Shown here one piece after another: positions 1 to 42,150 of a stretch of 42,150 bases of DNA; position 1 is the stretch's first letter, and each line of letters starts with the position of its first letter. The translations under genes and the position numbers were made by a program. Under the pieces are notes generated by a model, which made no database searches, had not been told where the DNA came from, and was given only the letters and a program-made list of their open reading frames with translations. The stretch is from a virus, in UHGV virus genome UHGV-0166076. One strand, given 5' to 3'.

Positions 1-109
1 TAAGCCCAAACACTGACGCAATTGCCTGTACAAGCAGTAAGATTGCTGGGATCAGTGCCGCCCAGAATGCCTTGTTTTTAATTCTTACAATCCAATTAAT
101 CTTCTTCAT
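1..109 (-). CDS. Holin, N-terminal portion. ATG at 109 and the gene runs off the left edge. It continues in frame with 42011..42150 if the window is circular.
   Basis: Minus-strand ATG at 109 is preceded by an AAAGGAG RBS. Translation is MKKINWIVRIKNKAFWAALIPAILLLVQAIASVFGL, a basic N-terminus followed by a TM helix, typical of phiLC3/Hol44-type (Phage_holin_4_1-like) holins. It lies immediately downstream of xhlA, as in the PBSX xhlA-xhlB-xlyA cassette. Confidence 0.7.
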   Translation of the reverse strand, partial: MKKINWIVRIKNKAFWAALIPAILLLVQAIASVFGL

Positions 110-122
110 TTTTCATTCTCCT

Positions 123-404
123 TTACAAATACATTGCTGCTATTCCACCAATCACAGCTCCGATCAGTGCGGTTACTACTACGTCCCACCGTTTAGCTGG
201 TGTCTGCTCAAGATGTGTCACTTTTGCGGTCAGCTGCACAAGAGTCTGGTTCATAAAGCCAACCTCTTTGGTTAGCCCTACCATCTCTTGTGCCAGTTGA
301 TGCACCACATTTACAATATCTTCCACCTCATTCATCCGGTGCTTTAACGAGCCGATTTCTTTATTATATTCGGCAAGTGTTACTTCTACTTCATTTTCTG
401 TCAT
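123..404 (-). CDS. xhlA: XhlA-like lysis-associated membrane protein, also called haemolysin XhlA family.
   Basis: 93 aa with an N-terminal coiled-coil region and a single C-terminal TM (WDVVVTALIGAVIGGIAAMYL). Has an RBS. Sits directly upstream of the holin, the PBSX-like arrangement. Confidence 0.6.
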   Translation of the reverse strand: MTENEVEVTLAEYNKEIGSLKHRMNEVEDIVNVVHQLAQEMVGLTKEVGFMNQTLVQLTAKVTHLEQTPAKRWDVVVTALIGAVIGGIAAMYL

Positions 405-414
405 TCTCGTCTCC

Positions 415-2079
415 TTACCATATTTTTGCTGTTCCTAAGTATGCCGCTGTTACCTGTTTGTTTCCGATATAAATTTTTCTAATACGATCATATCCAAGAT
501 ACATTTTTTTATCTTCTTCCCATATGGCATACAATGTAGCATTTCCATAAATGGTATATACACTATCTGGCTGATATTCAGGATTTCCACCAGGCGAAGT
601 TGCCCAACCTTTAAATACATAACCGGATTTATAAGGGGCACGAGCTGGAAGATACCATGCTTCGCCATATTTGCCACGTAATGGGTTAAATTCTCCACTT
701 CCACCTTGGAGGTCAAATGTGATAGTATATACAGATTCTTGTTGTTCCCATACTGCGTAAAAAGTCATGTCTCCATATGGGGTGTAAGTTGATCCAGGTT
801 GATAATCTGCGGATGTCGCCCACGATGATGTAGACCATCCTAAAAAAGTATGGTTAGACCATGTTGGGGTTGTGTATGGAATGTAAGTTTGCTCTCCTAC
901 AACTTTTTGCTGCATTGATGGAGCGCCGGAGCCTCCATTTGCGTTGAAAGTAATTGTACAATACTGTGTAGATTTGCCCCAAACTGCATAAAGAGTACTG
1001 TCACCATACAAAGTATAATATTCTCCGGGCTGATATGATACACTGCCACTGGAATAAGTTGACCACCCTTTAAATGTGTATCCGCTTTTTGCTGGAGTTG
1101 TATATGGAATTTGTACCCGTTCACCATATCCTCCATACAAAGTATTAAATGCGCCTGTTCCCCCTTGAAGATTAAAGGACAAAGAGTATTGTGTGACCTG
1201 ATTTTGTCTCCATACCGCATATAATGTTATGTCATATTCAGACATATATGAATAACCAGGCGTATATGCGGACTCTGGTTCGGTTGCTCCAGACCATGTA
1301 GACCAGCCTAAAAAAGTATATCCACTACGAGTGGGTTTCGAATAAGTAATTGTAATGGATTGACCTACATTTACTGTCTGTTTTGCGGGTGCATTTGTTC
1401 CTCCATTCGCATTATATGTGACACTCCATGTTCTAGTAACATTCTGACCCCAAACAGCATACAAGGTCGTATCTGCATCTATTGTAAATGCATCTCCTGG
1501 TTGATACTGTGCATAGGAAGATGAGGGTGAAGTTGCCCATCCTTTGAAAGTGTAACCGGATCTTGTAGGTTTTTGAGTAGTAAGATATAGGGTATTGTTG
1601 AAATACTTCTTCTGCATTGACGGTGCGCCGGATCCGCCATTCGCATTAAAATACACACCCCAGAGATTTCTTTTGACATTGATTGTGAAATCCATTCCCT
1701 TGCCTACTACATTTGGAATAATGATATTCGCATATGCATTCAGAGTGATATCCGCTCCCGCTTCTGCTTTCACAAAGACAGCCTGATCATAAAAAGTACG
1801 TACTTGATTTGCTACAATTTCCATATACTTTTCTTCTAAAGTACCCTCTTCGTGTCCGTGAGTACCTGCCTGCACTTTTCCATAACCATAAGTAGCGTAC
1901 GGACTGGTCTTGGTCGCATTTATGATAAATCGACAGTCCCACCCTGGCTGCCCATCCCGATACACCCGATAAGTTTCCCAACGACACCAGGCAGTGCAGT
2001 TTGAGTTCCCGTCCATGGGATAGTGTGGTGTTTCACCAGAAAAGTCTGCCGATCGCTGTAGTTCTTTGTTATTTTTCAT
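415..2079 (-). CDS. Putative cell-wall-targeting lytic/adhesion protein. N-terminal CHAP-like Cys/His domain plus five ~70-aa Listeria-Bacteroides (Flg_new) repeats.
   Basis: Start refined to MKNNKEL, because the AGGAG RBS lies inside the longer ORF. N-terminus has NCTAWCRWETY ... AGTHGHEEG (Cys...His), CHAP-like. Five tandem repeats of the form FNANGGSGAP...GYTFKGWAT...LYAVW. Occupies the position of PBSX XepA, between the tail-fibre genes and xhlA. Confidence 0.6.
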   Translation of the reverse strand: MKNNKELQRSADFSGETPHYPMDGNSNCTAWCRWETYRVYRDGQPGWDCRFIINATKTSPYATYGYGKVQAGTHGHEEGTLEEKYMEIVANQVRTFYDQAVFVKAEAGADITLNAYANIIIPNVVGKGMDFTINVKRNLWGVYFNANGGSGAPSMQKKYFNNTLYLTTQKPTRSGYTFKGWATSPSSSYAQYQPGDAFTIDADTTLYAVWGQNVTRTWSVTYNANGGTNAPAKQTVNVGQSITITYSKPTRSGYTFLGWSTWSGATEPESAYTPGYSYMSEYDITLYAVWRQNQVTQYSLSFNLQGGTGAFNTLYGGYGERVQIPYTTPAKSGYTFKGWSTYSSGSVSYQPGEYYTLYGDSTLYAVWGKSTQYCTITFNANGGSGAPSMQQKVVGEQTYIPYTTPTWSNHTFLGWSTSSWATSADYQPGSTYTPYGDMTFYAVWEQQESVYTITFDLQGGSGEFNPLRGKYGEAWYLPARAPYKSGYVFKGWATSPGGNPEYQPDSVYTIYGNATLYAIWEEDKKMYLGYDRIRKIYIGNKQVTAAYLGTAKIW

Positions 2080-2089
2080 GTTGCTGCTC

Positions 2090-2308
2090 CTAATCAACGA
2101 TTAAATACACAGTCTGACTGTCTTTCACTCTTAAATGATCATAATCAGATTGCGTCATGCTTTCGAAAGCATAGGGCACTCGATTTCTATCGATATACTT
2201 ATTTTCCAGTTTTCTGGATAAATACGACAACCCGCTGTAGTCTAGAACCTTTTTCGGGGAAGCTTTTTGCTCCCCCACCCGAAACATCTTTTTTAAAAAT
2301 TCAGGCAT
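2090..2308 (-). CDS. Small phage protein of unknown function (XkdX-position).
   Basis: 72-aa ORF translationally overlapping the start of the downstream gene. Function not recognisable. Confidence 0.4.
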   Translation of the reverse strand: MPEFLKKMFRVGEQKASPKKVLDYSGLSYLSRKLENKYIDRNRVPYAFESMTQSDYDHLRVKDSQTVYLIVD

Positions 2309-2323
2309 TGCGTGTCACCTGCC

Positions 2324-3043
2324 TTATGAGAATAAACCATCAATTTCAGAATTTGTAATAGACTGAACATTCGCATCTGATCCAGCTGGCCCCTGTGGTC
2401 CCATTGGTCCAACGTCTCCTTTTTCGCCTTTTAATCCCTGAGGTCCTTGCGGTCCTGTTTCTCCTCTGTCACCTTTGGCTCCTGCTGGACCCTGAATTCC
2501 CTGTTCTCCTTTTGCACCCGCTGGGCCCGCCGGACCTGTTGCTCCCTGTAATCCCTGTGGTCCCTGAGGTCCTGTCATACCTGTGGCTCCTGATAAGTCC
2601 GTAATGTAGGTATAGGATGAGGCTCCTTTTACGTACAATTTTGCATTGTCGGCATCCTGTACATCTCCTGTGTCAATCATGACAAATTGCCCGGTCTTTA
2701 CCCCATCGGTTGCAAATCCTTTATTCATCGCATCAACGGATTCAAATGTTTTAGCGATTTTAAACGCCTCACCGGCTGGACCCTGTGGCCCCTGTAATCC
2801 CTGAGGTCCCTGTGCACCCACCGCACCGGCTGGCCCTGCTGGTCCCTGCGGTCCGGCTGCTCCAGTCTCTCCTTTATCTCCTTTGAATTCTCCAGCTTTG
2901 ATTGCCTCATCCAACGGCTTTAATTTATACAAAACATCAGTAGAGGCTACCTTATCTGTTTTCTTTCGAAATGCGCCATTTGCCCATTCCTGCATTTTTG
3001 TTTTAAATGTTCCAAGCCCTGTAAGATCTAAAAATTTTGCCAT
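2324..3043 (-). CDS. Collagen-like triple-helix repeat tail-fibre protein.
   Basis: Two long runs of Gly-X-Y repeats (GETGAAGPQGPAGPAGAVGAQGPQGLQGPQGPAG...; GATGMTGPQGPQGLQGATGPAGPAGAKGEQG...). C-terminal motif QSITNSEIDGLFS. Confidence 0.8.
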   Translation of the reverse strand: MAKFLDLTGLGTFKTKMQEWANGAFRKKTDKVASTDVLYKLKPLDEAIKAGEFKGDKGETGAAGPQGPAGPAGAVGAQGPQGLQGPQGPAGEAFKIAKTFESVDAMNKGFATDGVKTGQFVMIDTGDVQDADNAKLYVKGASSYTYITDLSGATGMTGPQGPQGLQGATGPAGPAGAKGEQGIQGPAGAKGDRGETGPQGPQGLKGEKGDVGPMGPQGPAGSDANVQSITNSEIDGLFS

Positions 3044-3061
3044 GTTCTTTCTTCTCCTTTA

Positions 3062-3259
3062 TTACTGAAATAATCCGTTAATTTCGTCTTCTGTGATGAT
3101 CTCGTTTCCTGCTCCTGCTTCCAGTTCCCCGATCTTCTGCTCTACGGATTTTCCTTCCGTGAGCTGCACACTTTCCGCCATGACCAGTGGGTAATTCCCG
3201 TTATTTTTTACCGTTAAGGTGTTGACGATTGTAACACCGCCGTCAATACTCTGTGCCAT
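3062..3259 (-). CDS. Small fibre-associated protein of unknown function.
   Basis: 65 aa. Has the C-terminal motif TEDEINGLFQ, shared with the two neighbouring proteins. RBS present. Confidence 0.45.
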   Translation of the reverse strand: MAQSIDGGVTIVNTLTVKNNGNYPLVMAESVQLTEGKSVEQKIGELEAGAGNEIITEDEINGLFQ

Positions 3260-3272
3260 CTTCCAAACCTCC

Positions 3273-4037
3273 TTATTTTACTGTAACTGCTGTAGATCCC
3301 AGTCCTGCATTTACGGACATCCAGACATCATAACTCTGCTTGTAACCGGATGCGTTGGTAAATTCCAGCGTCTGTGCTTTTTTAAATCCTCCGTCAAATC
3401 CACCCACATTGAATGTTGGCGTTCCAAAGGATGTAGGGATTGCATACACAATCTTCTCTCCTGCTCCCGCATTGACCGTAAAGGTGCGCCCTCTTCCACC
3501 GGCAAGCGAGGATCCTTCCAGTGCCAGGATATCGGCATTTTCCAGCTGTGCCTTGTTGCTCTTGCCCCAGTAGACTTTTGGCTGGAAGGTAATGCTTGCG
3601 GTTCTGGATACAACCGCATCCCTCTCATCTGTTACGGTCAGAACGATATTTGTATTTGTTTTGATTGTCTTTCCTGTATAAGATTTCTTGCGGAGCGCCT
3701 TATCCAGTACTTCTTCTGCGTCTGATCCGAATTTGATCTTCTGCGTTTTTGGCTCTTTGTTTAACGTCCACGCGACATCAGATGCGGTTACTGTTGCACC
3801 GATCTCATTACTGCTGTTTGTAGCAGTCAAGGTATTGATTGCAATCTTGGTGTATGCCAGATCGTCAATCTTCTGCTTGTACTCATCCGAAAAATCATTG
3901 CTGGATAATCCTTTCCCATCCTCCTTTCTTACGTATCTTGCATCATTTTTCTGTACCAGGTGTGCAAGACCATCCTGATCCAGGTACTTCTTTTCTGCGG
4001 CCAGTGCCGCTGCTTTTGTTGCTTTCTTTCTTGGCAT
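3273..4037 (-). CDS. Phage tail fibre / structural protein (hypothetical).
   Basis: 254 aa, Thr/Ser/Asn-rich and beta-rich, in the tail-fibre gene block. No catalytic motif recognised. Confidence 0.45.
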   Translation of the reverse strand: MPRKKATKAAALAAEKKYLDQDGLAHLVQKNDARYVRKEDGKGLSSNDFSDEYKQKIDDLAYTKIAINTLTATNSSNEIGATVTASDVAWTLNKEPKTQKIKFGSDAEEVLDKALRKKSYTGKTIKTNTNIVLTVTDERDAVVSRTASITFQPKVYWGKSNKAQLENADILALEGSSLAGGRGRTFTVNAGAGEKIVYAIPTSFGTPTFNVGGFDGGFKKAQTLEFTNASGYKQSYDVWMSVNAGLGSTAVTVK

Positions 4038-4039
4038 GT

Positions 4040-4591
4040 TTAATCTGCTCCTTTCATAATCTCGTCAATCTCCGGATTGGTGATCGACTCTATCTCCACA
4101 GTTCCGCTTCCCCCGCCTTCCGGAAGTTCCACTTCACTGAGTAGATTCTCCCCGGAAAAAAGCTGCATCCGGTTTTCCTCCAGCTGCAGCCTGTCTCCTT
4201 TTTTATTTAGTTGTTCTAATAGTTCTTCCAGAATGTGTTCCTCTTCTGGTTCTTCATAATCTTCCGGCTTTGGACGCTTATTCACTGCACATTCAATCTG
4301 TCGGATAGTCTGACCGGATTTTGTGTCTGCCAAATACAAAAACGCCCAAATATTTCTCCCATTTTTCAGTAGAGTATCCGGTATTTTTGCCAGAATGTGA
4401 TTTTCTTTCACTTCTCCGATTACCGTTTTTGCTGTTTCGCTCCCTGCAATCGCAAAATGAACTTCCATTGTTTTATTTTGAAAATCCAACCCACAGATTT
4501 TTAGTGTCTGACCACGATCCCACTGCCAAAGCCCTGGAACCCTCTTGTATCCTTCACCGTCATTAAAAGCGGCGGTTATCATATCCCCCAT
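4040..4591 (-). CDS. Phage tail / fibre-associated protein (hypothetical).
   Basis: Start refined to MGDMITAAF (ATG at 4591) behind a GGAGGTGAGAAA RBS and after the upstream stop at 4603. C-terminus ESITNPEIDEIMKGAD shares the SITNxEID motif with the collagen-like protein. Confidence 0.5.
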   Translation of the reverse strand: MGDMITAAFNDGEGYKRVPGLWQWDRGQTLKICGLDFQNKTMEVHFAIAGSETAKTVIGEVKENHILAKIPDTLLKNGRNIWAFLYLADTKSGQTIRQIECAVNKRPKPEDYEEPEEEHILEELLEQLNKKGDRLQLEENRMQLFSGENLLSEVELPEGGGSGTVEIESITNPEIDEIMKGAD

Positions 4592-4602
4592 TTTCTCACC
4601 TC

Positions 4603-6009
4603 CTAACTTGCTGCGATCCAAGATGTACAGATCGTCCGCTCTGCATAATCTTTCTTTTCCACATCCAGAGAAATCTTGCCTCCTATACGATATCTTCCAG
4701 TTCCAATGATCGTCCCTGCGACTACTTCCGGGCACGCGCAAAATACGTGATATTTCGGCTGGAATTCTTCCGGGATGGCCACCTCGTCAAAATCATTGAA
4801 AGACCCGCTGTTCGGAAACTGCGCCAGCATCTCAATTTTGCAGTGTACGATCTTGCCGATCTTATACAACCACACCTGCACGTGATTACTGCTGTTTACA
4901 TTGGAGTACGGCCCTCTCACCTGTCCGGAATCATGTTCCTTGATCCCCATCAATTCTTGATCTCCAAGTAATAACTTTCCGTGAAACCTCACATCTTGAT
5001 AGAAATCATATCCCTCTTCTCTGTCACTTGCTGTTCCACCAAAAGCAATGCTCCTTCCTTTATTTGCAACATCCAACGCCCGGAACTGCGCGGGAACAAT
5101 CACTTCTTCCTGTTTGTTTCCGTTTAAGTCTGTGATTGTAACAATCACAAAATACACATACGATGCAGATATTTGTCCATTTCCTATTACAGACGAAATT
5201 TCCCCACTTGCTGCATTTGGCTTCGTTTCACTGACTTTGACTAAGGATCCGGTACTCGTTTTCTTGTACTCTATTTTTATGCTGGTCGCGATGTTGGAGC
5301 TGTTTAACGTCCTGTCCACCTTCCATGTTCCAGACACTTTGATATAGGTTCCGTCTCCCATAGCGTTCCCTTTTGAGTCACACCGCAGCGCTTTTAGATT
5401 TGTAATTGTCGGTTGGATATACGCAATTTTCCAGACTGCATACAAGGTGATATCCACATCTGTGCCGTAAGTAGACCCCGGCATGTACGACACCTCTCCA
5501 GCAGATGACGTTGCCCAACCCATAAATACATACCCGTCTCGTGTAGGGCGTGCAGAGGATAGGGTTAAGTTTGACCCATATATTTTCTTTTGACTGCCCG
5601 GCGCGCCCGTTCCTCCGTTTGCATTGTAAGATACGGTATGTTCCCACGTGATAGCCGAGAGTGCGTAACTTCCGCTTGCTGAGATTGTGGACGGGTTGAT
5701 TCCCGTGTTAATTGTTGCGGAAAATCCTATGTTCTTGGGCTGTCCGCTTGTCGGCATCGTAATACGGAATGTCTTAGTTCCGCCAATGTTTGTCCATATC
5801 CATTTTCCTCCACCACTTCCCACCGCAAATGTTGCGCTGCCAGATGTATTCTGCCCATCACAGCTCATGTTGTACGGTGCACCGCCGTAATTGTATCCGC
5901 CCCAGTCAAACGCAATATCAAACCTGATATCTACATCGTACTGATGCGTGAGGTTCACGTCTCCTACACCACGTACTGCGGTTACATATATTCTTCCTGT
6001 TCCTGCCAT
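4603..6009 (-). CDS. Tail fibre / receptor-binding protein with one Listeria-Bacteroides (Flg_new) repeat.
   Basis: 468 aa. Contains SYNANGGTGAPGSQKKIYGSNLTLSSARPTRDGYVFMGWATS...LYAVW. Has an AGTAAGGAG RBS. Directly downstream of Tal. Confidence 0.55.
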   Translation of the reverse strand: MAGTGRIYVTAVRGVGDVNLTHQYDVDIRFDIAFDWGGYNYGGAPYNMSCDGQNTSGSATFAVGSGGGKWIWTNIGGTKTFRITMPTSGQPKNIGFSATINTGINPSTISASGSYALSAITWEHTVSYNANGGTGAPGSQKKIYGSNLTLSSARPTRDGYVFMGWATSSAGEVSYMPGSTYGTDVDITLYAVWKIAYIQPTITNLKALRCDSKGNAMGDGTYIKVSGTWKVDRTLNSSNIATSIKIEYKKTSTGSLVKVSETKPNAASGEISSVIGNGQISASYVYFVIVTITDLNGNKQEEVIVPAQFRALDVANKGRSIAFGGTASDREEGYDFYQDVRFHGKLLLGDQELMGIKEHDSGQVRGPYSNVNSSNHVQVWLYKIGKIVHCKIEMLAQFPNSGSFNDFDEVAIPEEFQPKYHVFCACPEVVAGTIIGTGRYRIGGKISLDVEKKDYAERTICTSWIAAS

Positions 6010-6020
6010 TTATTTTCTCC

Positions 6021-8195
6021 TTACTCGATGTAGATTAGAGAGAGATGTCCATCTCCATTGTCCAGCATAGCATAGTTGCCTACCCCAACTCGCTTAGCAC
6101 TTAGATTGTCGACTTCCGCCACCGGCATATACGCTTTCTCGTTGCCGAAATACGCCAGCCCTTTGTCCCCCTCGTAGAATCCTAAACGGGAGTTGGTTAG
6201 CCTTGCTTTCAGGTCGTTGCTTGTTCCACCCAGCTCCAAAAACGGCGTAACTCCATCCGATCCCTGCCGCACCCACGTATCGATAACTTCTGTCTTGCCG
6301 TCTACGTAAGTTACGGTATTCTTAAACTCAGCACGGACCTCATTCTTGTACTTTTCGAAACTGGTATTGATGTTGTTGACGCTGGAGATTGCAGTGTTCG
6401 CAGAATCCTGTGCGTTTCCTGCTGCATCTTTTGCATCCTCGATGTCTCCCGTGTATGCTTCTACCCATTTTTCGCCGTCCCAGTACTTAAGGACGTTGTT
6501 TATCGTGTCGTACCAGAGTTTAGTCTTATCGTCTGGTGGTGTTTCAGACTTGATTGCTCCATCTGCGCCATCATCCCCTTTGTATTTTGACCACTGGTAA
6601 TCTCTTGGATCGTCGCTTTCTATCTGGGATTCCTTGTTGTATGCGAGTCCGATGTAAGCCTTGTCATCAGGACTGTCAGACATTCCCTTTCCATTCTGGT
6701 CATCTGCATATTTCACCCAGGTATAATACGTCACTCCATCTTTTCCTGGATCCCCCGGTGCTCCATCGTCCACTTTGGTGATTGTCACCTCATAATATCC
6801 ACGCCGGATTCCATTTTCGGTGGCTGTAAAAGAGTATACTGCCTTGGTATCCACATCATCAGCATTAACCGTCACGCTCCGCCCAGTACGGAACTCTGCG
6901 TCATCTTTACTCCACCGGAATTGTAGCTTGCCTGATACATCCACGCCATTATCGTAGGCGTAAGCTGTCAGAGTGGTGCTGCCGATACCATTTTTAAAGA
7001 TGATGCCATTGTTGGTGGAGATGGAACATGTGTACACCTTATTTTTGTTGATAAGATCTTCCATCCTCTGCAATAAGCTATCCGAAATTTCGGATGTAAG
7101 CTCTTTGTAGTTAGTAAATACGGTCTTTGCGACTGTTGGATTTGTAAAGCTGCGGACTTGCTCGGACACTCTCGCCTGTAAGTATAAGATCGGATTCCAT
7201 TCCTGATCCTGCATCCTTACGGTGTCCCCGATGTCGGTATCAAAATATCCTTCCACCTCATAGGTTACTACCGGTTCAGATGCGGTTTTGAGGTCAGACA
7301 GAGCCATGCTGTAAAGTTTCTCTTGGTTGTCCGTGTCATACTCTTTTCGCATTGCGATATAGGCATCATCCTTATTAACCACGTTAGACGGAAATCGGTC
7401 TCTTGCCTGTGGTGCTCTGATGATCGCACCGTCTGTAAAGTATTCCAAACGTCCGCTTGCATCGTATTCCTTTTTATCCAGACCATTGATGGTCAGCCCA
7501 TCCTTCCCGGTCGGAATGATGCAGGTGTATAGGTTCTCAGCATCTGTGGTCTTCCGGATTCCGGTAATCCCTTTCCCGTATCGCAGGACAACATCATTTC
7601 GGAATGTTCCAATTCCGCTGTCCTTGTCGCTCTGCTCCCGATATACGTTTAAGATAATCTCTTTTAGTGAGTAGTCTTTATTCAAAACGGTCTCAAACTC
7701 CACTTCTGCGGAAAATACATTTGCGAGGGAAAAGAGTCTTTTTAAAATAGATGTGGTCCCTGTCCATTCGTTCGTGATCCGCTTGTCGGATACCTCATTC
7801 AGTCCTAATCGAACGGAATGTTCCGGATCAAATACATTCAGGTATTCTTCAAAACTCATGGCGTTCTCTGCTTTATACGCCCCGGCATCCTCGTTAATCA
7901 ATTCAAAGGACAGAGACCATGCTTCTGCTGTCACCGTCTGTTCTGTACGCTCTGTACGGACGATATTTAAGTAGTAGTGTTTACCCTTTGCAACAAAAGC
8001 AATCTTATTTCCGGCTGTGATGTGCACGGAATCTGGATGCTTTGCGTCTACTGTAAAGGTGAAAGTATTCGCCGCCCCCTGTAAATACTCATGCAGTTCG
8101 TCGCCCCAGTAGTGCATAGACTTTCGGTGATTGTTATCCATATAAGCCAATGGCTTGTCTCCTGTACTCAGGATCCCAATTCTTACGTGTTCCAT
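6021..8195 (-). CDS. Tail-associated lysin / phage tail endopeptidase (Tal, Prophage_tail family).
   Basis: 724 aa, immediately downstream of Dit with a TAATG overlap. N-terminal region typical of siphovirus Tal. Contains a short GAPGDPGKDG collagen-like stretch. Confidence 0.65.
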   Translation of the reverse strand: MEHVRIGILSTGDKPLAYMDNNHRKSMHYWGDELHEYLQGAANTFTFTVDAKHPDSVHITAGNKIAFVAKGKHYYLNIVRTERTEQTVTAEAWSLSFELINEDAGAYKAENAMSFEEYLNVFDPEHSVRLGLNEVSDKRITNEWTGTTSILKRLFSLANVFSAEVEFETVLNKDYSLKEIILNVYREQSDKDSGIGTFRNDVVLRYGKGITGIRKTTDAENLYTCIIPTGKDGLTINGLDKKEYDASGRLEYFTDGAIIRAPQARDRFPSNVVNKDDAYIAMRKEYDTDNQEKLYSMALSDLKTASEPVVTYEVEGYFDTDIGDTVRMQDQEWNPILYLQARVSEQVRSFTNPTVAKTVFTNYKELTSEISDSLLQRMEDLINKNKVYTCSISTNNGIIFKNGIGSTTLTAYAYDNGVDVSGKLQFRWSKDDAEFRTGRSVTVNADDVDTKAVYSFTATENGIRRGYYEVTITKVDDGAPGDPGKDGVTYYTWVKYADDQNGKGMSDSPDDKAYIGLAYNKESQIESDDPRDYQWSKYKGDDGADGAIKSETPPDDKTKLWYDTINNVLKYWDGEKWVEAYTGDIEDAKDAAGNAQDSANTAISSVNNINTSFEKYKNEVRAEFKNTVTYVDGKTEVIDTWVRQGSDGVTPFLELGGTSNDLKARLTNSRLGFYEGDKGLAYFGNEKAYMPVAEVDNLSAKRVGVGNYAMLDNGDGHLSLIYIE

Positions 8196-33365: not shown

Positions 33366-33505
33366 AGCTTGTCCTCCTTTCTACCGCCTAAGCGGTTTTC
33401 TCTTCTGTCCTCTTTTCGAGTGTGTAATCAATTTTCACATGTTCCTGTTCTTCGATCAGAGATATCAACACTTGTATGATTTTTTCCATATCTGGTTTCA
33501 TGTCA

Positions 33506-33697: not shown

Positions 33698-33699
33698 TC

Positions 33700-33885
33700 C
33701 TATTTACGCTTCGTTCCAAACCTATCAATTATCATGTCTGTCACATCGGTAACAAAGTCCATGTTGACATCAAGTAAATGATCAACAGCCTTTTGGATAA
33801 TACTCATAGACTCCCGTGTCACTACAAGACTTGTAACGATTGATGTTATGATCGAGCAGATGATGCTTACTATTACAATTTCCAT
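33700..33885 (-). CDS. Small membrane protein.
   Basis: N-terminal TM MEIVIVSIICSIITSIVTSLVV. Confidence 0.4.
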   Translation of the reverse strand: MEIVIVSIICSIITSIVTSLVVTRESMSIIQKAVDHLLDVNMDFVTDVTDMIIDRFGTKRK

Positions 33886-33899
33886 GTCAATCCTCCCTG

Positions 33900-34661: not shown

Positions 34662-34672
34662 TATTCCTCCTA

Positions 34673-34818
34673 TATATTGTGATTTTCTTGATTTTTATAC
34701 AAAAAGTGGTATAATATCAAGGTTGTACTATTCACTAAATATTGTGCGAAAACATATGTTTCGTACTTTATATTGTGTTTTTCGTGATTTTTATTTGACT
34801 TTCCATATATTGTGTTGT
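34673..34818. repeat. Iteron-like direct repeats in an intergenic region.
   Basis: Four copies of the motif TATATTGTG. Two ~27-bp imperfect direct repeats: TATATTGTGATTTTCTTGATTTTTATA (34673..34699) and TATATTGTGTTTTTCGTGATTTTTATT (34770..34796). An extended -10 TGGTATAAT lies at 34698..34706. Confidence 0.55.
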
Positions 34819-34867
34819 ACCATCTTACTAGAGGTATCTCATTTTTAATAAGAAAGGTGGTGAATAT

Positions 34868-35002
34868 ATGGCAAAAGGAAAATCATGCAAGCCATCTGCT
34901 AAAGTCAGCAAAGCTGGAAAAACTCTTTCCACAAGCAAATCAGCTTCCGCAAAATCTAAAGCAGGAACAATCCTTGCAAACCATAAAAGTACAAGCCATT
35001 AG
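34868..35002 (+). CDS. Small Lys/Ser/Ala-rich basic protein (44 aa) on the plus strand, moron-like.
   Basis: AAAGGTGGTGA RBS 5 nt before the ATG. Translation: MAKGKSCKPSAKVSKAGKTLSTSKSASAKSKAGTILANHKSTSH. Followed immediately by a perfect terminator. Confidence 0.4.
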   Translation: MAKGKSCKPSAKVSKAGKTLSTSKSASAKSKAGTILANHKSTSH

Positions 35003-35008
35003 TCTTTT

Positions 35009-35034
35009 GTCCTGAGTTTATACTCAGGACTTTT
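35009..35034 (+). terminator. Rho-independent terminator.
   Basis: Perfect 9-bp stem GTCCTGAGT / ACTCAGGAC, loop TTAT, then TTTT. Confidence 0.7.
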
Positions 35035-35193
35035 AAATTGTCCTGAATAGCATTTTTGCCATTTCAGTCATTGCTATAAGCTCTTCTGGTGTTGGGTTAT
35101 CCTTGTTCGCAGTGCGAATAACGAACTTCGATAAATCTTCTACCATTTCTTCATACAAACTTTTTTGACTTTTCTTAGACATCTTTTTCTCCT

Positions 35194-35406
35194 TTACAAT
35201 TTCTTCGGTTTAATAAACTTGTCCGTATTCACTTCCAGTGCTCCGCAGATCAACTCATATTCTTCAAAAGTAAACCGTCTCTTGCCATTCAGCGAACTAC
35301 AGATCTTATGTTTCGGTATCCCTGTTTTTTGTGATAAAAAAATCTGTTTGATACCTCTTTCTGTCAGGTAATCATTGATTGCTCTTCCGAGCCATTCATC
35401 TGCCAT
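35194..35406 (-). CDS. XRE-family HTH transcriptional regulator (70 aa).
   Basis: Helix-turn-helix QIFLSQKTGIPKHKICSSLNGKR. Confidence 0.55.
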   Translation of the reverse strand: MADEWLGRAINDYLTERGIKQIFLSQKTGIPKHKICSSLNGKRRFTFEEYELICGALEVNTDKFIKPKKL

Positions 35407-35456
35407 AAATTCCTCCTACTCCAAAAAATACTCAACTGATACGTTGAAGTAATCTG

Positions 35457-36116
35457 CTACGCCACAGATTCCAGATATGCAAGATCCTTCACTGTTTCCA
35501 ATCTCTTCTTACAATCCTGATAAATCTCTTTGTAATGTTTTCCAGTCAGTATTCCAGTATCGATCACATGGAGAATGATGTTTTCCATCAGCGAAAGATT
35601 GTTCAGTTGCATAACTGTTGCTTCATCACGCTTTCCAATTCCAGCCATCTTATTTGCAAGTTTTGAATAGGTCATGTAAAGCATCTCTGCGTGTGTGCTC
35701 CCCTGCCCTTTTGCGTATTCCACTAATTTCTGAATGGTGTCCGTCTCTGCTCTTCTGGTCAGTTTTCCGGCTTTTCTTGTTTCTACCCATGTCTGCGTTG
35801 CTTTTTCTTTGATGAGTGCTTCCATCTGATCGAAAGCATCACTATACATTAGCTTCCAATGCACTGCATCTTTCCCATTAAACCCCATTACCAAAATCGT
35901 AAATCCTTTGCGATTCATAATGTATTTCTCGTAAGTCCTACCTTTTGCATCTTTATGATGGGAAATACGGAAAATTTTCCGGTTTTCAATCTCCTCATTT
36001 TTGAGGAGATTAGAAATTGCTCGCATCACATTATCGTGCCGTTTTCCAAACTTCTCAGCCACCTGCAAACTGTCACACACTGCTTCATCATTTTTTAAAT
36101 ATACGAGTTCTGTCAT
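35457..36116 (-). CDS. Rha-family phage regulatory protein.
   Basis: N-terminus LVYLKNDEAVCDSLQVAEKFGKRHDNVMRAI, typical of Rha. Confidence 0.7.
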   Translation of the reverse strand: MTELVYLKNDEAVCDSLQVAEKFGKRHDNVMRAISNLLKNEEIENRKIFRISHHKDAKGRTYEKYIMNRKGFTILVMGFNGKDAVHWKLMYSDAFDQMEALIKEKATQTWVETRKAGKLTRRAETDTIQKLVEYAKGQGSTHAEMLYMTYSKLANKMAGIGKRDEATVMQLNNLSLMENIILHVIDTGILTGKHYKEIYQDCKKRLETVKDLAYLESVA

Positions 36117-36355
36117 TATTTCTCCTGCTCCTGATCCATCTCCTTTTCCATCAACTCCAGCTGTTCCATCGTTACTCCGTCACGGATTAACTGCTTTCCT
36201 CTCTTCTCATGCCATCTGAGTTGATACAGATACTGTCTCCTCTTATATTTAATGCGCTGTTCCTGTCTGGAAAGCTGTACGGCATCGGATTGATTTAATC
36301 TTTCGATCTCCTGTTCTACTTGTTCGTCTGTTAAAAAATCTTTTCTTGGTTTCAT
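36116..36355 (-). CDS. Hypothetical coiled-coil protein (79 aa).
   Basis: ORF between cro and rha. Confidence 0.4.
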   Translation of the reverse strand: MKPRKDFLTDEQVEQEIERLNQSDAVQLSRQEQRIKYKRRQYLYQLRWHEKRGKQLIRDGVTMEQLELMEKEMDQEQEK

Positions 36356-36367
36356 TTGCCTATCCTC

Positions 36368-36568
36368 CTATCCTAATAATTCGTCAATGGTACATCCTAG
36401 CACCTTTGCTACTTTAGATAAGCTTCTTACTGTAGGACTAACTGTATTCCACTTATAAATGCTTCCAGTGGAAACACCAGCACGACTTTCTAATAAGTTG
36501 ATGGAAATACCTTTTTCCACAGCTTTCTTAGATACCTTGTCAAAAATATTATTTTCCGTATCAATCAC
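36368..36568 (-). CDS. Cro-like XRE-family HTH regulator.
   Basis: 66 aa with HTH LLESRAGVSTGSIYKWN. First gene of the leftward early operon, facing the operator region. Confidence 0.6.
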   Translation of the reverse strand: MIDTENNIFDKVSKKAVEKGISINLLESRAGVSTGSIYKWNTVSPTVRSLSKVAKVLGCTIDELLG

Positions 36569-36799: not shown

Positions 36800-37222
36800 A
36801 TGACACTGAGAGAACGCGTAAAACATCTATGCAAAGAACATGGAATTTCAATGAATAAATTGGAAAACGAGCTTAATTTTGGAAAAGGGTACATAAGCAA
36901 ATTAGGTTCAAGCCAACCAAATGTTAATAAGTTGCAGCAAATCGCTGATTACTTCAGCGTATCATTAGATTATTTAATGTCTGGGGAATCTAATGGCGAT
37001 AATCTGTCATTACTCACGGCGAAAGATGAACGCGACATTGCAAAAGACATGGAAAACATTAGAAATAAGTTAAAAAACAATGAAGAAGGTCCTGCTTCTT
37101 ATGACGGTCAAGCTATCCCGGAAGAAGATATTGACTTACTTCTTGGGCAAATCGAGCTGATGATGAGAAGATTAAAACCGATTAACAAAGAAAAGTACAA
37201 CCCTAACAAAAATAAAAAGTAG
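36800..37222 (+). CDS. XRE-family repressor (ImmR/CI-like).
   Basis: Start refined to MTLRERVKHLCKEHGISMNKLENEL, an HTH, behind a GAAAGGAG RBS. Followed by the ImmA protease gene. Confidence 0.75.
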   Translation: MTLRERVKHLCKEHGISMNKLENELNFGKGYISKLGSSQPNVNKLQQIADYFSVSLDYLMSGESNGDNLSLLTAKDERDIAKDMENIRNKLKNNEEGPASYDGQAIPEEDIDLLLGQIELMMRRLKPINKEKYNPNKNKK

Positions 37223-37666
37223 GTGTATAAATTGAGAACAAACGATATTAAGCGTTTAGTTGAATACTACATAAAGAAATTTAATACAAGAAATCCTTTT
37301 GAACTTGCAAACTGTTTAAATGTCGAAGTTCAATTAGGACCTTTGGGAAGTCGAGCTGGATGCTATATGTTTCTGAAAAATCACAAGTGCATTTTTCTGA
37401 ATGAAGATTTGGAAGAACATGAACTGAACCTTGTAATGGCTCATGAATTGGCGCACTCCATTCTTCATAGAAAAGAAAATTGTTACTTTATCAGAAATAA
37501 GACTCTTCTATTATCTTCTACCAATGAAATAGAAGCGAATATTTTTGCAGCAGAACTTCTAATACCAGATTCTTTGATCTATGAGAATCCGGGCATGACA
37601 AAAAGCCAGATTGCAAGGCTGGCTGGATATGATGAAAAGATTATGGATTTTAAAAATTTTAAATGA
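37223..37666 (+). CDS. immA: ImmA/IrrE-family metallo-endopeptidase (anti-repressor protease).
   Basis: HEXXH motif MAHELAHSILH. Directly follows the XRE repressor, as in ICEBs1 ImmR/ImmA. Start is GTG at 37223 or TTG at 37232. Confidence 0.8.
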   Translation: MYKLRTNDIKRLVEYYIKKFNTRNPFELANCLNVEVQLGPLGSRAGCYMFLKNHKCIFLNEDLEEHELNLVMAHELAHSILHRKENCYFIRNKTLLLSSTNEIEANIFAAELLIPDSLIYENPGMTKSQIARLAGYDEKIMDFKNFK

Positions 37667-37725
37667 TATAATCGCTACAGCGTTTATATAGAATGAAGTG
37701 GTGTGAGGTACAAAAAGGAGGAAAT

Positions 37726-38790
37726 ATGGAGTTTATCGAATCTATTAAACAGTTTTCGGAGCGCGTATCACTGATGAAAGATACTGTATCTACCGAAGAG
37801 GCAACAAAAATGTCTTTAATCGTCCCTATGTTTCAGATACTTGGGTACGATGTATTCAATCCACTGGAGTTTTGCCCGGAATATACAGCGGACGTTGGCA
37901 TTAAAAAAGGGGAAAAGGTTGACTATGCAATTTTGGATAATGGAGAACCAAACATTCTAATTGAATGCAAAAGTTGTTCCGAACAGCTAGATAAACATTC
38001 TTCACAACTATTCAGATATTTTGGAACGTCTCCTGCCAAATTCGGCATTCTGACAAACGGGATTATATACAGATTTTACACGGATTTGGAAGAAGCGAAT
38101 AAAATGGATCTGGTTCCATTCCTTGAAATAAACATGCTCAGCCTAAAAGACTCTTCCATAAATGAATTAAGGAAGTTTTGCAAGGAAAATTTCGACAGAG
38201 AAAAAATATTCAGCACAGCTGAAGAGTTGAAATATAGTTCGCTCATAAAAGGTGTGTTGTCAGATGAATTTGAATCACCATCAGAAGAATTTGTAAGGCT
38301 TGTACTCACGAATATATATGACGGACAGAAGAACCAAAGAGTGATAGAAAAATTCACTCCTGTTGTAAAAAGGGCGTTCTCCTCATTTGTGAATGAAATC
38401 GTGAATAACAAGATATCTTCTGCTTTATCAAAGGATAATGATGATGAAAAAACAGAAACAGAAGAAATCACAGAAGAACCCGTATCAAAAATCGTAACTA
38501 CGGAAGAAGAAATCGAATCATTCTACATTGTAAGAGGTATGCTCGCTGGAACCGTAGATGTTAACGATGTAGTACATAGAGATACAGAGAGCTACTTTGG
38601 AATCTTGTACAAAGATAATAATAGAAAGCCTATTTGTAGGATAAATCTCGACAAGAAAAACAAGCAATTATTCATTCCAGACGAAAATAAGAAAATGGAA
38701 CGTTTTTACATCGAAACACTCAATGATTTGTACAAATACAAAGACAGGTTAATCGAAGTAGTGAAAAGATATGCAGAGCAGGATAAATAA
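37726..38790 (+). CDS. HsdR-N-terminal-like (PD-(D/E)xK restriction-endonuclease-fold) domain protein. Candidate lysogen defence or exclusion factor.
   Basis: Start refined to MEFIESIKQF behind an AAAGGAGG RBS. Contains VDYAILDNGEPNILIECKS, a D...E.K nuclease motif. C-terminal region is unassigned. Confidence 0.5.
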   Translation: MEFIESIKQFSERVSLMKDTVSTEEATKMSLIVPMFQILGYDVFNPLEFCPEYTADVGIKKGEKVDYAILDNGEPNILIECKSCSEQLDKHSSQLFRYFGTSPAKFGILTNGIIYRFYTDLEEANKMDLVPFLEINMLSLKDSSINELRKFCKENFDREKIFSTAEELKYSSLIKGVLSDEFESPSEEFVRLVLTNIYDGQKNQRVIEKFTPVVKRAFSSFVNEIVNNKISSALSKDNDDEKTETEEITEEPVSKIVTTEEEIESFYIVRGMLAGTVDVNDVVHRDTESYFGILYKDNNRKPICRINLDKKNKQLFIPDENKKMERFYIETLNDLYKYKDRLIEVVKRYAEQDK

Positions 38791-38822
38791 AAAACAAATC
38801 GCAAAACGGGAGAAACTATACT

Positions 38823-39314
38823 ATGAAAAAGAAAATTGTAGCAATGATATTAGTAGGAGCTATGGCATTATCCATTACAGCGTGCGGTGGAGATAAAGAG
38901 CCAGAAAAAGAGAATACTGCGAAAACAGAGGCTACGGAAAAAGAACCGGAAGTCGAAGTGACGTATCAAAGTATTCTCGATGATTATACAAAGAAGATTG
39001 CTGATGCGACTCCGGGACTTGTGGAAGAATATAATAACGAAGCAGCTCCGATTGCCGGAGACTTAAATGCGCTTGCTGAATTATCAAATAGCAAGGTTGA
39101 AAAACTGGCCGAGATTTCTAATCAGGGCGTTTCCGAAATGGCTACGCTAATGCAGAAGAATGGGGACGAATACAGTGTTTATGAAGAATGGTCATTGAAA
39201 TTAACTGACGTATACACCCAATACGCAAAGCAGATCACTGACGCATACACTTCTTCCGCTGCCGGCATGAGTACGGAAGACCTGATGAATTCTCTCAATT
39301 CTTTAGGACAATAA
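38823..39314 (+). CDS. Lipoprotein, Ltp-like superinfection-exclusion candidate.
   Basis: Signal peptide with lipobox MKKKIVAMILVGAMALSITAC. Lies between the lysogeny module and the integrase. Confidence 0.6.
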   Translation: MKKKIVAMILVGAMALSITACGGDKEPEKENTAKTEATEKEPEVEVTYQSILDDYTKKIADATPGLVEEYNNEAAPIAGDLNALAELSNSKVEKLAEISNQGVSEMATLMQKNGDEYSVYEEWSLKLTDVYTQYAKQITDAYTSSAAGMSTEDLMNSLNSLGQ

Positions 39315-39489: not shown

Positions 39490-40965
39490 ATGGAAACGAA
39501 ATATGCTTTTGGATACGTCCGTGTATCCACTGGAAAGCAAGATGAATTATCCCCAGATTCCCAAGCGAAGTTGTTAAAAGATTACGCAAAGAGTCACGGG
39601 TATGTGGTGTCTAAGATTTTTTACGAGGTCGGGATTTCTGGAAGAAAAGCTGATAAGCGCCCGGAGTTCCAAAAAATGATTGGGCTCGCAAAAGCATCAG
39701 ATCATCCGGCAGATGCTATCTTAGTATGGAAATACAGCAGATTTGCGAGAAACCAAGAGGAAAGCATTGTATATAAGTCTCTGCTCAAAAAGAAGCACAA
39801 TGTGGATGTCATAAGCGTGTCAGAACCGTTGGTAGATGGCCCATTTGGCTCTCTGATAGAGCGAATCATCGAGTGGATGGACGAATATTATTCCGTTCGT
39901 CTCTCCGGAGAAGTAACCAGAGGAATGAAGGAGAAAGCAGAAAGAGGTGGATACCAAGCACGCCCACCGCTCGGGTATAAGATCGTGACGCATAAGGAAC
40001 CTCCGGTAATCGTTCCGGAAGAAGCTGAAATCGTGAAACTGATTTTTGAAAAGTATGCAAATGAGAACTTAGGAATATTTGAAATTGCTAGGCTTTTAAA
40101 TATGCATAATTTCAAAACCTCGCACGGGAAAGAATTTGAACGCCGGTCCATTGAATACATCCTACAAAACCCTACTTACTGCGGTATGATACGCTGGAAT
40201 CGGACAATCAATGAATCCAACGAAATCCGTCCGGAAAGCGAATGGATTGTAACCGATGGGGAGCATCCTGCAATCATAAGCAAGGAGCTATTCGATAAAG
40301 CACAGGAACGATACAAGAGAGAATACAGGCCACGTGGTTCGAGACCAGTAAGCACATACAAGCACTGGTTGTCTGGTGTCGTTAAGTGCCCAGCGTGCGG
40401 CAGGACAATGACTGCAAACACGATCAGGAATAACACAAGAGTGTACTCTCATTTTAGGTGCTATGGATACACAAAGGGAAAATGCATGGCGAACAACTCT
40501 ATCAGTTCGATTAAGCTAGAACCTGCGGTACTGGAATCCATCAAAACTGTGCTTAATAATGGTAAAATCACATACCGTAAGATCGAAGCCAAAACCGATG
40601 ACACTGTGGACTTAAAAACCATACTGGAAGACCAGATTAAAAAGATCGATGTGAAACTGCAAAGAATCAAAGAAGCCTACATGAACGGGATTGACACTAT
40701 GGAAGAATACAAGGAAAATAAACAGGCTGTACAAGAAGAAAAACAACACCTTGAAAAACAACTGTCCGAAATCAAGGAAGAAAAAAGCAACAGCAAAGAT
40801 GATGACGAGGACATGCTGCTAAGGGTGAAAAATGTGTACGATATTCTCTCTTCCGACTCTGTTGATGCGACAACCAAGAATGATGTGCTCAGGAGTGTTG
40901 TAGAAAAAATCATCTACGAAAAGGATAAGGACTTGTTAAAGGTTTATTACTACTACATGCCGTAA
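39490..40965 (+). CDS. int: Large serine recombinase (integrase).
   Basis: N-terminal resolvase domain YVRVSTGKQ with the catalytic Ser, recombinase domain, Cys-rich zinc ribbon (CPACG...C) and C-terminal coiled coil. AAGGAGA RBS. Confidence 0.9.
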   Translation: METKYAFGYVRVSTGKQDELSPDSQAKLLKDYAKSHGYVVSKIFYEVGISGRKADKRPEFQKMIGLAKASDHPADAILVWKYSRFARNQEESIVYKSLLKKKHNVDVISVSEPLVDGPFGSLIERIIEWMDEYYSVRLSGEVTRGMKEKAERGGYQARPPLGYKIVTHKEPPVIVPEEAEIVKLIFEKYANENLGIFEIARLLNMHNFKTSHGKEFERRSIEYILQNPTYCGMIRWNRTINESNEIRPESEWIVTDGEHPAIISKELFDKAQERYKREYRPRGSRPVSTYKHWLSGVVKCPACGRTMTANTIRNNTRVYSHFRCYGYTKGKCMANNSISSIKLEPAVLESIKTVLNNGKITYRKIEAKTDDTVDLKTILEDQIKKIDVKLQRIKEAYMNGIDTMEEYKENKQAVQEEKQHLEKQLSEIKEEKSNSKDDDEDMLLRVKNVYDILSSDSVDATTKNDVLRSVVEKIIYEKDKDLLKVYYYYMP

Positions 40966-41087
40966 ACCCTTGAAAACACTGGGTTTGCGGGTGTTTGTAG
41001 GTTGTTACAAAAAGGTCAACCTTTATGCAAGGGCATACAAGTAATATTCTTACCTATTATAATAGGATAAAAATGGTACAATATTCA

Positions 41088-41120
41088 CCCCTCAGAGAGC
41101 TAATCTCCGAGGGGGGTTTT
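41088..41120. terminator. GC-rich hairpin plus T-tract terminator.
   Basis: CCCCTC...GAGGGG stem then GGTTTTATT on the plus strand. Lies between the convergent int and amidase genes. The minus-strand side lacks an immediate U-tract. Confidence 0.55.
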
Positions 41121-41121
41121 A

Positions 41122-41862
41122 TTAAATAGATTTAACCGGTTCACGATACAATGGGTTCATCAGTCTCACATGCCATGGTGCATTTTTGCCCCAACTGTAG
41201 CATGGCATATCATGCCCAAAGTTATCCTTATAGACCTGCTGAATGATTTTTAACTCGTCTGGATGTGCTAAAGCTGTCACAACTCCATCATGATACCAAT
41301 AAACACATCCTTTTCCTTCTACTGTAAACATGCACTGCATATCTTCATTTTCTCCTTTCTGCTCTGCTGTTGCGACTTGATTTCCATTCATCAGTTCGCT
41401 GATGCGTTTAATAAAATACGTTTTTGTCGCTGTCGCACCACCGTGAATCTCCACTGATCTGTGCGGACAAGCTGTTGCGTACACCTCCTGATGTAACATG
41501 ATTGTGCTTGCACTTGGTGTAATTCCGTACTGCTTACATTTCTGCGCTGCTAACTGCAATGCTTTTTCTTCGTTCGCCTTAAAGGTATCCAAGTCCCCCA
41601 TGCTCTGGCAGACCTCTATACTCAAGAAATTGAGATTTCCGTTCAAGTATCCGCAGTGCCAAGCGCAATTTTCGTCATCTTCCGCCTGTAAGATTCCATC
41701 GCTGCACACATAATAATGGGCAAATCCGTTTTCCAAGTTTGCGTTTTGTAAGTAATTCCCGTAATACGCTGTCGTAGCATTCTGACCGTCTGCCCCATTA
41801 TGAATAAAAATACCGACAGGATTTTTACCTCTCCTGCCGGCAATTCCTCTACAAATACTCAT
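41122..41862 (-). CDS. N-acetylmuramoyl-L-alanine amidase endolysin (Amidase_2/PGRP fold) with an uncharacterised C-terminal domain.
   Basis: GIFIHNGADG ... CPHRS zinc-ligand pattern. The C-terminal ~80 aa are Trp/Cys-rich, a possible wall-binding domain. Confidence 0.8.
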   Translation of the reverse strand: MSICRGIAGRRGKNPVGIFIHNGADGQNATTAYYGNYLQNANLENGFAHYYVCSDGILQAEDDENCAWHCGYLNGNLNFLSIEVCQSMGDLDTFKANEEKALQLAAQKCKQYGITPSASTIMLHQEVYATACPHRSVEIHGGATATKTYFIKRISELMNGNQVATAEQKGENEDMQCMFTVEGKGCVYWYHDGVVTALAHPDELKIIQQVYKDNFGHDMPCYSWGKNAPWHVRLMNPLYREPVKSI

Positions 41863-41956
41863 TATTTCTCCTCCTGTTCTTCCTCCTGTTCTTCTGTCTC
41901 AAATGCTTTTTCCAGTTCCTCTGCTGTTGTTCTTCCAAATTCGTTCTGTTCGCTCA
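41863..41956 (-). CDS. Tiny acidic protein (30 aa) between holin and amidase.
   Basis: AGGAGGTGAG RBS. Translation: MSEQNEFGRTTAEELEKAFETEEQEEEQEEK. Overlaps the amidase start codon. Confidence 0.3.
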
Positions 41957-42010
41957 TGTTCTCACCTCCTTGCATAATAAAAGAGAGCCTGTTTCCAAGC
42001 TCTCCTGAAT

Positions 42011-42150
42011 CTATTTATATGTAAGCGCCCGTTCTGAGTCTCCTGTGCCCGGTGTTGTAGGATCTACCACTACACCAAGGATCGCCAACACTGCAAAAAG
42101 TGCATTGATTACGGTTAACAGCTTATCACCAAGGTCTCCAAGGTTGATGT
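42011..42150 (-). CDS. Holin, C-terminal portion (runs off the right edge). Continues in frame from 1..109 if the window is circular.
   Basis: Translation INLGDLGDKLLTVINALFAVLAILGVVVDPTTPGTGDSERALTYK*. Second TM plus the conserved DPTT.G..DS..AL.Y C-terminal signature of phiLC3/Hol44-type holins. Confidence 0.7.
   Translation of the reverse strand, partial: INLGDLGDKLLTVINALFAVLAILGVVVDPTTPGTGDSERALTYK

Follow-up and report, generated by a model that had tools for sequence, protein, structure and literature searches.

Ends of a 42,150-bp gut phage genome assembly meet inside one holin gene

The virus genome UHGV-0166076 was analysed as a single stretch of 42,150 nucleotides (hereafter, the window), each end of which falls within an open reading frame (ORF). 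This raises the question of whether the window is one complete phage genome opened at an arbitrary point, or a prophage that was cut from a chromosome and is bounded by host DNA. The original prediction, made from the sequence alone, favoured one genome of about 42.15 kb over a bounded prophage, and this view held up: the phage modules are complete, the window contains no host DNA, and the phage attachment site (attP) is internal. We consider it highly probable that the window represents, in full and without redundancy, the 42,150-bp genome of a temperate, siphovirus-type phage that was closed as a circle by the assembler and opened within its holin gene. The phage is a temperate siphovirus of gut Lachnospiraceae, close to the phages of Ruminococcus/Mediterraneibacter gnavus.

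The holin gene at the ends of the window

The two ends of the window carry the following parts of the gene:

1..109, minus strand: 5' part of the holin gene, with the start codon at 109-107, codons 1-36 and the first base of codon 37
42011..42150, minus strand: 3' part of the holin gene, with the last two bases of codon 37, codons 38-82 and the stop codon at 42013-42011

Translation of the minus strand from 109 down to 2 gave the N-terminal half of the holin, MKKINWIVRIKNKAFWAALIPAILLLVQAIASVFGL, which begins MKKINW and ends SVFGL, and translation from 42148 down to 42011 gave the C-terminal half, INLGDLGDKLLTVINALFAVLAILGVVVDPTTPGTGDSERALTYK, which runs from INLGD to LTYK and is followed by a stop codon. 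The bridging minus-strand codon, AAC (Asn), is built from the T at position 1 and the GT at 42149-42150. Translating across the joined ends produced an ORF of 82 amino acids plus a stop codon, with no internal stops, just as had been predicted.

The joined protein matched PF04531 (Phage_holin_1) over profile positions 1-79 of 82 (E = 4e-26; 91.7 bits, cut-off 22) and TIGR01598 (holin_phiLC3) over positions 1-77 of 79 (83.4 bits, cut-off 39.7), together with four PHROG holin families (best E = 1e-27). Furthermore, each half alone matched a complementary part of PF04531, the N-terminal half at profile positions 1-32 (E = 6e-9) and the C-terminal half at positions 40-79 (E = 1e-11), and for this reason the join is more than chance. 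An identical 82-residue protein is on record as the intact gene product of another ENA contig. The TIGR01598 score upholds the phiLC3 type assigned to the holin in the original prediction. The Pfam family proposed there, Phage_holin_4_1, has to be replaced, as it gave no match to the joined holin at E<=1 in Pfam, where Phage_holin_1 was the sole significant family. The cluster of this holin at 90% identity has 271 members, with a length of 82 amino acids in 14 of the 15 members listed, and the source names in it include "phi LC3 family holin" and "phage holin [Mediterraneibacter gnavus]". In a hydropathy analysis (Kyte-Doolittle, 15-residue window), the profile rose above 2.0 twice, in peaks near residues 13-38 and 46-68, and ended in a polar, charged C-terminal tail; this two-segment topology is read from simple hydropathy and not from a dedicated topology predictor. 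From the family match and the position in the lysis cassette, the product is predicted to be a phiLC3-family, class-II-like holin. These results demonstrate that the two window ends are halves of one holin gene, and neither truncated genes nor a chance join.

The junction is also seen as contiguous DNA in independent contigs and in isolated phages, which bears out the claim that the ends join. Contig L019 (ERZ27274222) follows the window from position 4892 to 1 and then continues for 44 bases past the junction with one mismatch; a second contig of this assembly, L020, is 99.97% identical to window positions 9242-30599. Seven contigs span the junction region at 92.5-98.2% identity (L003, L012, L013, L014, L015, L017 and L018), and those from other samples (all of these except L003) do so at 95.7-98.2%. 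In all seven, as well as in the isolated phage phiRgIBDN1, the holin is 82 amino acids long, with 79-81 of the 82 residues identical and without an indel at the junction. When the window ends were mapped to isolated R. gnavus phages, they fell on adjacent bases (18855/18856 in MT980840, 18101/18102 in MT980837 and 19031/19032 in MT980836), in each case within a gene annotated as holin. The junction of positions 42150 and 1 is real contiguous DNA.

An exact-protein look-up identified the SPAdes contig NODE_683_length_42205_cov_10.86 (ENA ERZ843408; hereafter NODE_683). Over positions 17665-38147 (20,483 bases), this contig and the window share 100% identity with matching coordinates, and the contig exceeds the window by 42205 - 42150 = 55 bases. 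The one single-nucleotide difference near the far end of NODE_683 is synonymous. With a source contig only 55 bases longer than the window, the host flanks beyond both ends that would have spoken against a single genome were not seen. An overlap of k bases at the contig ends, here with k = 55, is the usual mark of a circular path in an assembly. A contig from another sample, scaffold_716 (ERZ28597107), begins at window base 1 and shows 3 single-nucleotide differences from the window in the parts compared; its ends are an exact 55-bp direct repeat equal to window positions 1-55, which defines the following feature:

1..55, unstranded: trimmed 55-base k-mer overlap, given by the terminal repeat of scaffold_716 and by the length of NODE_683 (42205 = 42150 + 55)

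The window is NODE_683 minus this trimmed k-mer terminal overlap. A biological direct terminal repeat was also considered and was rejected, because the repeat has the same length as the assembler's k (55 bases) and the ends of the window itself share no repeat of 8 or more bases.

NODE_683 and scaffold_716, which are independent assemblies of two samples, open the circle at the same base, and this base precedes by one k-mer length the point at which a variant phage contig, L003 (ERZ27274222), first departs from the window. L003 is identical to the window over 41015..42150 and 1-55, with its first mismatch at position 56; the identical segment of about 1.2 kb holds the holin C-terminus, the amidase and an attP arm. 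A strain-level fork in the assembly graph at position 56 is most likely the reason for the circle's opening point, and since the contig end coincides with the variant fork, the cut is an assembly-graph artefact without biological meaning. We infer that this variant was also what broke the contig in the source sample. In the mechanism that we propose, SPAdes (k = 55) would have recovered the phage as a circular path from the metagenome, the contig would have been written from a graph node inside the holin gene, and the 55-base terminal overlap would then have been trimmed. The node would not be random, in that a sister phage present alongside, with the 1.2 kb before this point identical, would diverge there. 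The window would then end in two holin halves because the contig was opened at a node inside the gene and its overlap was trimmed. A holin gene divided in this way between the two ends of a circular assembly is an ordinary artefact, and circular metagenome-assembled temperate phages are common.

Once the ends are joined, the lysis genes on the minus strand are contiguous in the order XhlA-like gene, holin, small ORF and Amidase_2 endolysin. Besides the holin, the cassette comprises:

123..404, minus strand: XhlA-like ("hemolysin") protein of 93 amino acids, matching phrog_937 over residues 6-91 (E = 2e-9) and adjoining the holin in all relatives
41981..42006, minus strand: terminator-like hairpin directly after the holin stop, with an 11-pair stem and a T-rich tail, called by consensus match only
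41862..41957, minus strand: very acidic small ORF of 31 amino acids from the ATG at 41957, with AGGAGG upstream and a stop codon that overlaps the amidase start
41122..41862, minus strand: endolysin, an N-acetylmuramoyl-L-alanine amidase of 246 amino acids, matching PF01510 (Amidase_2, E = 9e-17) and phrog_670 (E = 3e-59)

The gene order and the amidase profile matches confirm the contiguous cassette of xhlA position, holin, tiny ORF and amidase that had been proposed. The xhlA label is weakly supported: the phrog_937 hemolysin match and the position of the gene speak for it, and against it the 93-residue protein gave no match to Pfam XhlA (PF10779) at E<=0.01 and no Pfam or NCBIfam family at cut-off. 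The small acidic ORF, which gene callers start at 41975 (37 amino acids), had no family match in Pfam or PHROG; relatives hold an ORF of 31-37 amino acids in the same place. This ORF also carries a 12-base tandem repeat at 41869-41894.

Integrase, attP and the host sleC gene

Directly beyond the lysis cassette, the original prediction had placed a serine integrase and a candidate attP, and both are borne out by domain matches and by contigs that carry attachment-site junctions:

39490..40965, plus strand: large serine recombinase integrase of 491 amino acids, with Resolvase (PF00239), Recombinase (PF07508) and Zn_ribbon_recom (PF13408) domains, all above cut-off
40997..41038, unstranded: attP, with imperfect inverted arms around a central CA at 41017-41018 and the core GTCA at 41015-41018

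The integrase matched phrog_95 (E = 1e-125) and has the motif YVRVSTGKQ at residues 9-17. The integrase and amidase genes are convergent, with the attP core between them. The arms are complementary at 14 of the 20 positions flanking the CA, a symmetry equalled at only 0.005% of positions in the window. The small ORFs yielded no candidate recombination directionality factor, with no test dedicated to finding one.

Six contigs (L005, L006, L007, L009, L010 and L011) carry an integrase-to-host junction (attL) next to an identical integrase; in these, host genes begin 53 bases past the integrase stop, and the attL sequence includes ACAAAAAGGTCATCCAG. The host-to-amidase junction (attR) was found in one contig, L003, and the uninterrupted attP, as it stands in the window, in two, L004 and L008. 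The only sequence common to the attL, attR and attP contigs is the GTCA at 41015-41018. The phage-host boundary of the integrated copies lies at these four bases, inside the window, and because the host boundaries fall at the internal attP, the window is the entire element from attL to attR, joined end to end. With NODE_683 added to L004 and L008, junctions of the attP form are present in at least three assemblies.

The two host flanks, one from the attR side and one from the attL side, fuse in frame into one conserved protein, which is uninterrupted in at least 80 reference genomes of Mediterraneibacter, Faecalimonas, Dorea, Faecalicatena and relatives. This protein matched, over nearly its full length, the PDB entry 9h68, "Spore cortex-lytic enzyme pre-pro-form" (E = 8e-136), which we take to be SleC, the cortex-degrading enzyme that clostridial-type spores require for germination. 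The insertion point lies between CPNWMT and QWGSKxLGDQGY, in a conserved catalytic-domain motif of the sleC orthologue. Parts of host sleC were located in four contigs (L007 1585-2490, L009 1670-2575, L010 1585-2505 and L003 2512-2604). In the lysogen contigs, sleC ends in ...NWMTFL and a stop codon after 301-306 amino acids, compared with about 420 in the intact protein, and the truncated form loses about 120 residues, the PG_binding_1 domain included. Integration of the phage inside the coding sequence of the host sleC orthologue is well supported, and would proceed through the large serine recombinase at the CA dinucleotide within the gene.

The sleC 5' parts that lie beside the identical integrase differ from one another by 10-21% in DNA among L007, L009 and L010; therefore, prophages with this integrase sit in the sleC gene of several divergent host lineages. 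The host-side attachment pattern had no exact match in GTDB genomes, and the best reference sleC locus among the matches listed showed 84% protein identity and a nucleotide identity of at most about 81%. From these similarities, the host can be placed only as a probable gut Lachnospiraceae near Mediterraneibacter, Ruminococcus gnavus, Faecalimonas and Dorea.

Gene content, physical form and alternative readings

All phage modules are present in the window in one copy each, and no host genes are found in it. The remaining features, assigned by family matches where not stated otherwise, are:

36800..39314, plus strand: lysogeny/accessory block
36800-37222, plus strand: helix-turn-helix repressor-like protein, in the lysogeny block
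37232-37666, plus strand: ImmA/M78 metalloprotease, in the lysogeny block
37726-38790, plus strand: HSDR_N-type endonuclease, in the lysogeny block
38823-39314, plus strand: 163-residue protein with a weak Sie-like match, in the lysogeny block
22486..36568, minus strand: early, replication and accessory genes, 88-92% identical in DNA to R. gnavus phages in mosaic pieces
23077..23151, minus strand: tRNA-Ile (anticodon TAT), called by ARAGORN and matching Rfam RF00005 (67.8 bits)
15284..22416, minus strand: packaging/head module
21847-22416, minus strand: TerS (Terminase_2), packaging/head module
20601-21866, minus strand: TerL (Terminase_3 and 3C), packaging/head module
19242-20600, minus strand: SPP1-type portal, packaging/head module
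17783-19294, minus strand: Mu-F-like minor head protein, packaging/head module
17262-17549, minus strand: Prp-like peptidase, packaging/head module
16503-17135, minus strand: scaffold, packaging/head module
15284-16486, minus strand: major capsid protein, packaging/head module
415..15270, minus strand: head-tail connectors and tail module
13923-15270, minus strand: connectors, tail module
13382-13909, minus strand: tail tube, tail module
12511-13310, minus strand: tail chaperones, tail module
9711-12506, minus strand: tape measure, tail module
8195-9718, minus strand: Dit, tail module
6021-8195, minus strand: Tal, tail module
415-6009, minus strand: fibre/receptor-binding proteins with Flg_new repeats, tail module

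Read around the circle from attP, the serine integrase would come first, then the repressor/ImmA block and the genes for early functions and replication, followed by TerS and TerL, the head and tail modules, and finally the lysis cassette (XhlA-like gene, holin, small ORF, amidase), which leads back to attP. The early block includes genes for pRha and AntA antirepressor-like proteins, Sipho_Gp157, RusA, a replisome organiser, a Lar-like protein, a DNA methyltransferase, DUF551 and a split PAPS_reduct protein. This last gene (26844-27590, minus strand) is present as two ORFs of 149 and 86 amino acids, compared with one ORF of 236 amino acids in L020; the window has an A at 27143 (C in L020) at the stop codon of the 149-residue ORF, and one T fewer in the T-run at 27572. 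NODE_683 shows the same split. The single tRNA-Ile sits between the early genes and the terminase genes, and phiRgIBDN1 has tRNA-Ala and tRNA-Asn at the equivalent place. Two distal tail proteins, encoded at 415-2079 and 4603-6009 on the minus strand, contain Listeria-Bacteroides repeat (Flg_new) domains, with five matched stretches in the 554-residue protein; they are probably receptor-binding fibres, to judge from their domains, and are the part most widely common to other R. gnavus phages. In addition, two of the attL contigs, L005 and L006, share with L004 the identical 491-residue integrase and the same repressor/ImmA block and differ from it in the recombination/replication module: upstream of the shared integrase, they carry an alternative module with an SMC-like ATPase, RecT and DUF3799. 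One integrase accompanied by different replication modules points to module shuffling within this phage group.

The only solved relative of TerL is the "Gene 2 protein" of PDB entries 4IFE/4IDH (E = 3e-7), the large terminase of phage Sf6, a headful packager; its relatives by sequence include those of Listeria phage A500 and of staphylococcal phages. Because of the TerL relatives, the SPP1-type portal and the Mu-F-like protein, headful packaging is our best guess. These likenesses are suggestive only, and on them the virion DNA would most likely be terminally redundant and circularly permuted.

Several observations weigh against a complete genome closed as a circle. Its circularity is inferred from the assembly. 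The 55-base overlap of NODE_683 was deduced from its length of 42205 bases and from scaffold_716; the variant L003 that marks the branch point comes from ERZ27274222 and not from the source sample; and scaffold_716 is, after trimming, 105 bases longer than the window, with the extra bases located within contig positions of about 10405-29594. The exact 40-base junction sequence had no match in IMG/VR, a result that is uninformative, as the phage is absent there at 100% identity.

Among the alternatives, the one that survives best, although we regard it as unlikely, is that the DNA was present not as a monomer circle but as tandem prophage copies, or as concatemers formed in replication or packaging, so that the same unit genome existed in a linear, repeated form. 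In assembly, head-to-tail repeats are indistinguishable from a circle, integrated copies do exist in gut metagenomes (the six attL contigs and the attR contig L003), and the types of TerL and portal suggest a headful packaging that depends on concatemers. Nothing in the sequence separates this alternative from a monomer circle, and it would change only the physical form and not the unit genome; the attP-form junctions in at least three assemblies are as expected of excised or virion DNA. The molecule was presumably circular or permuted rather than a tandem array.

A second alternative would make the circle a chimera, closed through the 1.2 kb (41015..42150 and 1..55) common to two phages, so that the tail/XhlA side and the integrase side come from different genomes. 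The contig does end exactly at the variant branch point, and the lysogeny and replication modules are visibly shuffled, as seen in L005 and L006 compared with L004, which share one integrase. This reading is nevertheless very improbable, because the same arrangement is found in three samples (NODE_683, scaffold_716 and L019 with L020), the same gene order over the junction and attP recurs in contigs opened elsewhere (L012, which is from a contig of 39,969 bp, L015 and L018), the isolated phages keep this gene order across both sites, and each module is present exactly once in a genome of normal size. Finally, that the window is a prophage cut from a chromosome, ending in host DNA or flanked by it and joined in frame by coincidence, is scarcely credible even for a temperate phage with known integrated copies, given that the host boundaries of those copies fall inside the window and not at its ends, that the ends are halves of a gene which is intact in every relative and whose exact protein is on record, that the source contig adds merely 55 bases, and that the window holds no host gene. 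The window in its entirety may be handled as a single closed phage genome, with no host flanks expected at its ends, and the sleC integration target is the one point of wider interest beyond a routine circular genome.

Comparison with known systems

Among described phages, the nearest to this one are the temperate R. gnavus siphoviruses phiRgPS_6, phiRgIBDN1, phiRg519T2, phiRM10 and phiRg507T2_2/_3 (MT980836-MT980841; Buttimer et al. 2023, PMC10072058), and RG-TP1 (PQ571303) is also among the closest known phages. The genome shares with the R. gnavus siphoviruses the gene order, the lysis cassette (XhlA-like protein, 82-residue phiLC3-type holin and amidase) and, following it, the convergent integrase and the lysogeny block. 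DNA identity to them is 88-92% in mosaic pieces, which make up 19-39% of the window's early half; in the XhlA/holin region it is 87-90%, and the holin there is identical at 79 of 82 residues. These phages are smaller, at 36.5-37.8 kb compared with 42.15 kb here, and the packaging/head/tail-shaft module differs: outside the tail-tip pieces, this module had no megablast match to the R. gnavus siphoviruses, and its nearest match was MT835606, an unannotated faecal contig. For the six R. gnavus phages, a tyrosine integrase has been reported, with an attB that lies in an intergenic region or a tRNA (PMC10072058), whereas the phage studied here has a 491-residue serine integrase and an attB in sleC. 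In a later collection, most R. gnavus phages carry serine-type integrases (PMC13435783). The genome adds a new, uncultured mosaic to a known phage group.

The individual systems of this phage resemble well-described ones. The holin is like other phiLC3-family holins (TIGR01598/PF04531) in its full-length match, its 82 amino acids, its two hydrophobic segments, its charged tail and the endolysin encoded downstream, and nothing notable sets it apart. The integrase is like the large serine recombinases of the phiC31/Bxb1/SprA type, with three domains, a short attP with arms and a tiny shared core. As an assembly, the window resembles other circular metagenome-assembled genomes with a terminal k-mer overlap, in that the excess is exactly k = 55 and a gene is split at an arbitrary opening point; nothing about it is unusual, and the opening point can be traced to a strain-level branch of the graph.

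The integration target invites a further comparison. Elements with serine recombinases have been described in spore genes, namely SPbeta in spsM, skin in sigK, yin in yabG and gin in gerE (PMC4191935, PMC5025042, PMC10747680, PMC5595907). In the literature searched, we found no report of sleC as a target of such elements. It is conceivable, although we think it doubtful, that the phage acts as a gene-intervening prophage, such that germination-competent spores would form only if it were excised in the sporulating mother cell; a sporulation-coupled regulatory switch at sleC is speculation by analogy with those elements. If true, it would amount to a regulated-gene-integrity switch like those of SPbeta and skin, acting on germination in abundant human gut commensals, and a serine-integrase phage that splits sleC could link lysogeny to germination and hence to the transmission of these commensals. 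Like SPbeta, skin, yin and gin, the phage truncates the coding sequence of a spore gene, and the joined flanks restore one intact frame. It differs from them in its target, sleC, which encodes a cortex-lytic germination enzyme, and, compared with remnants of the SPbeta/skin type, it is a complete and apparently functional phage rather than a degenerate remnant.

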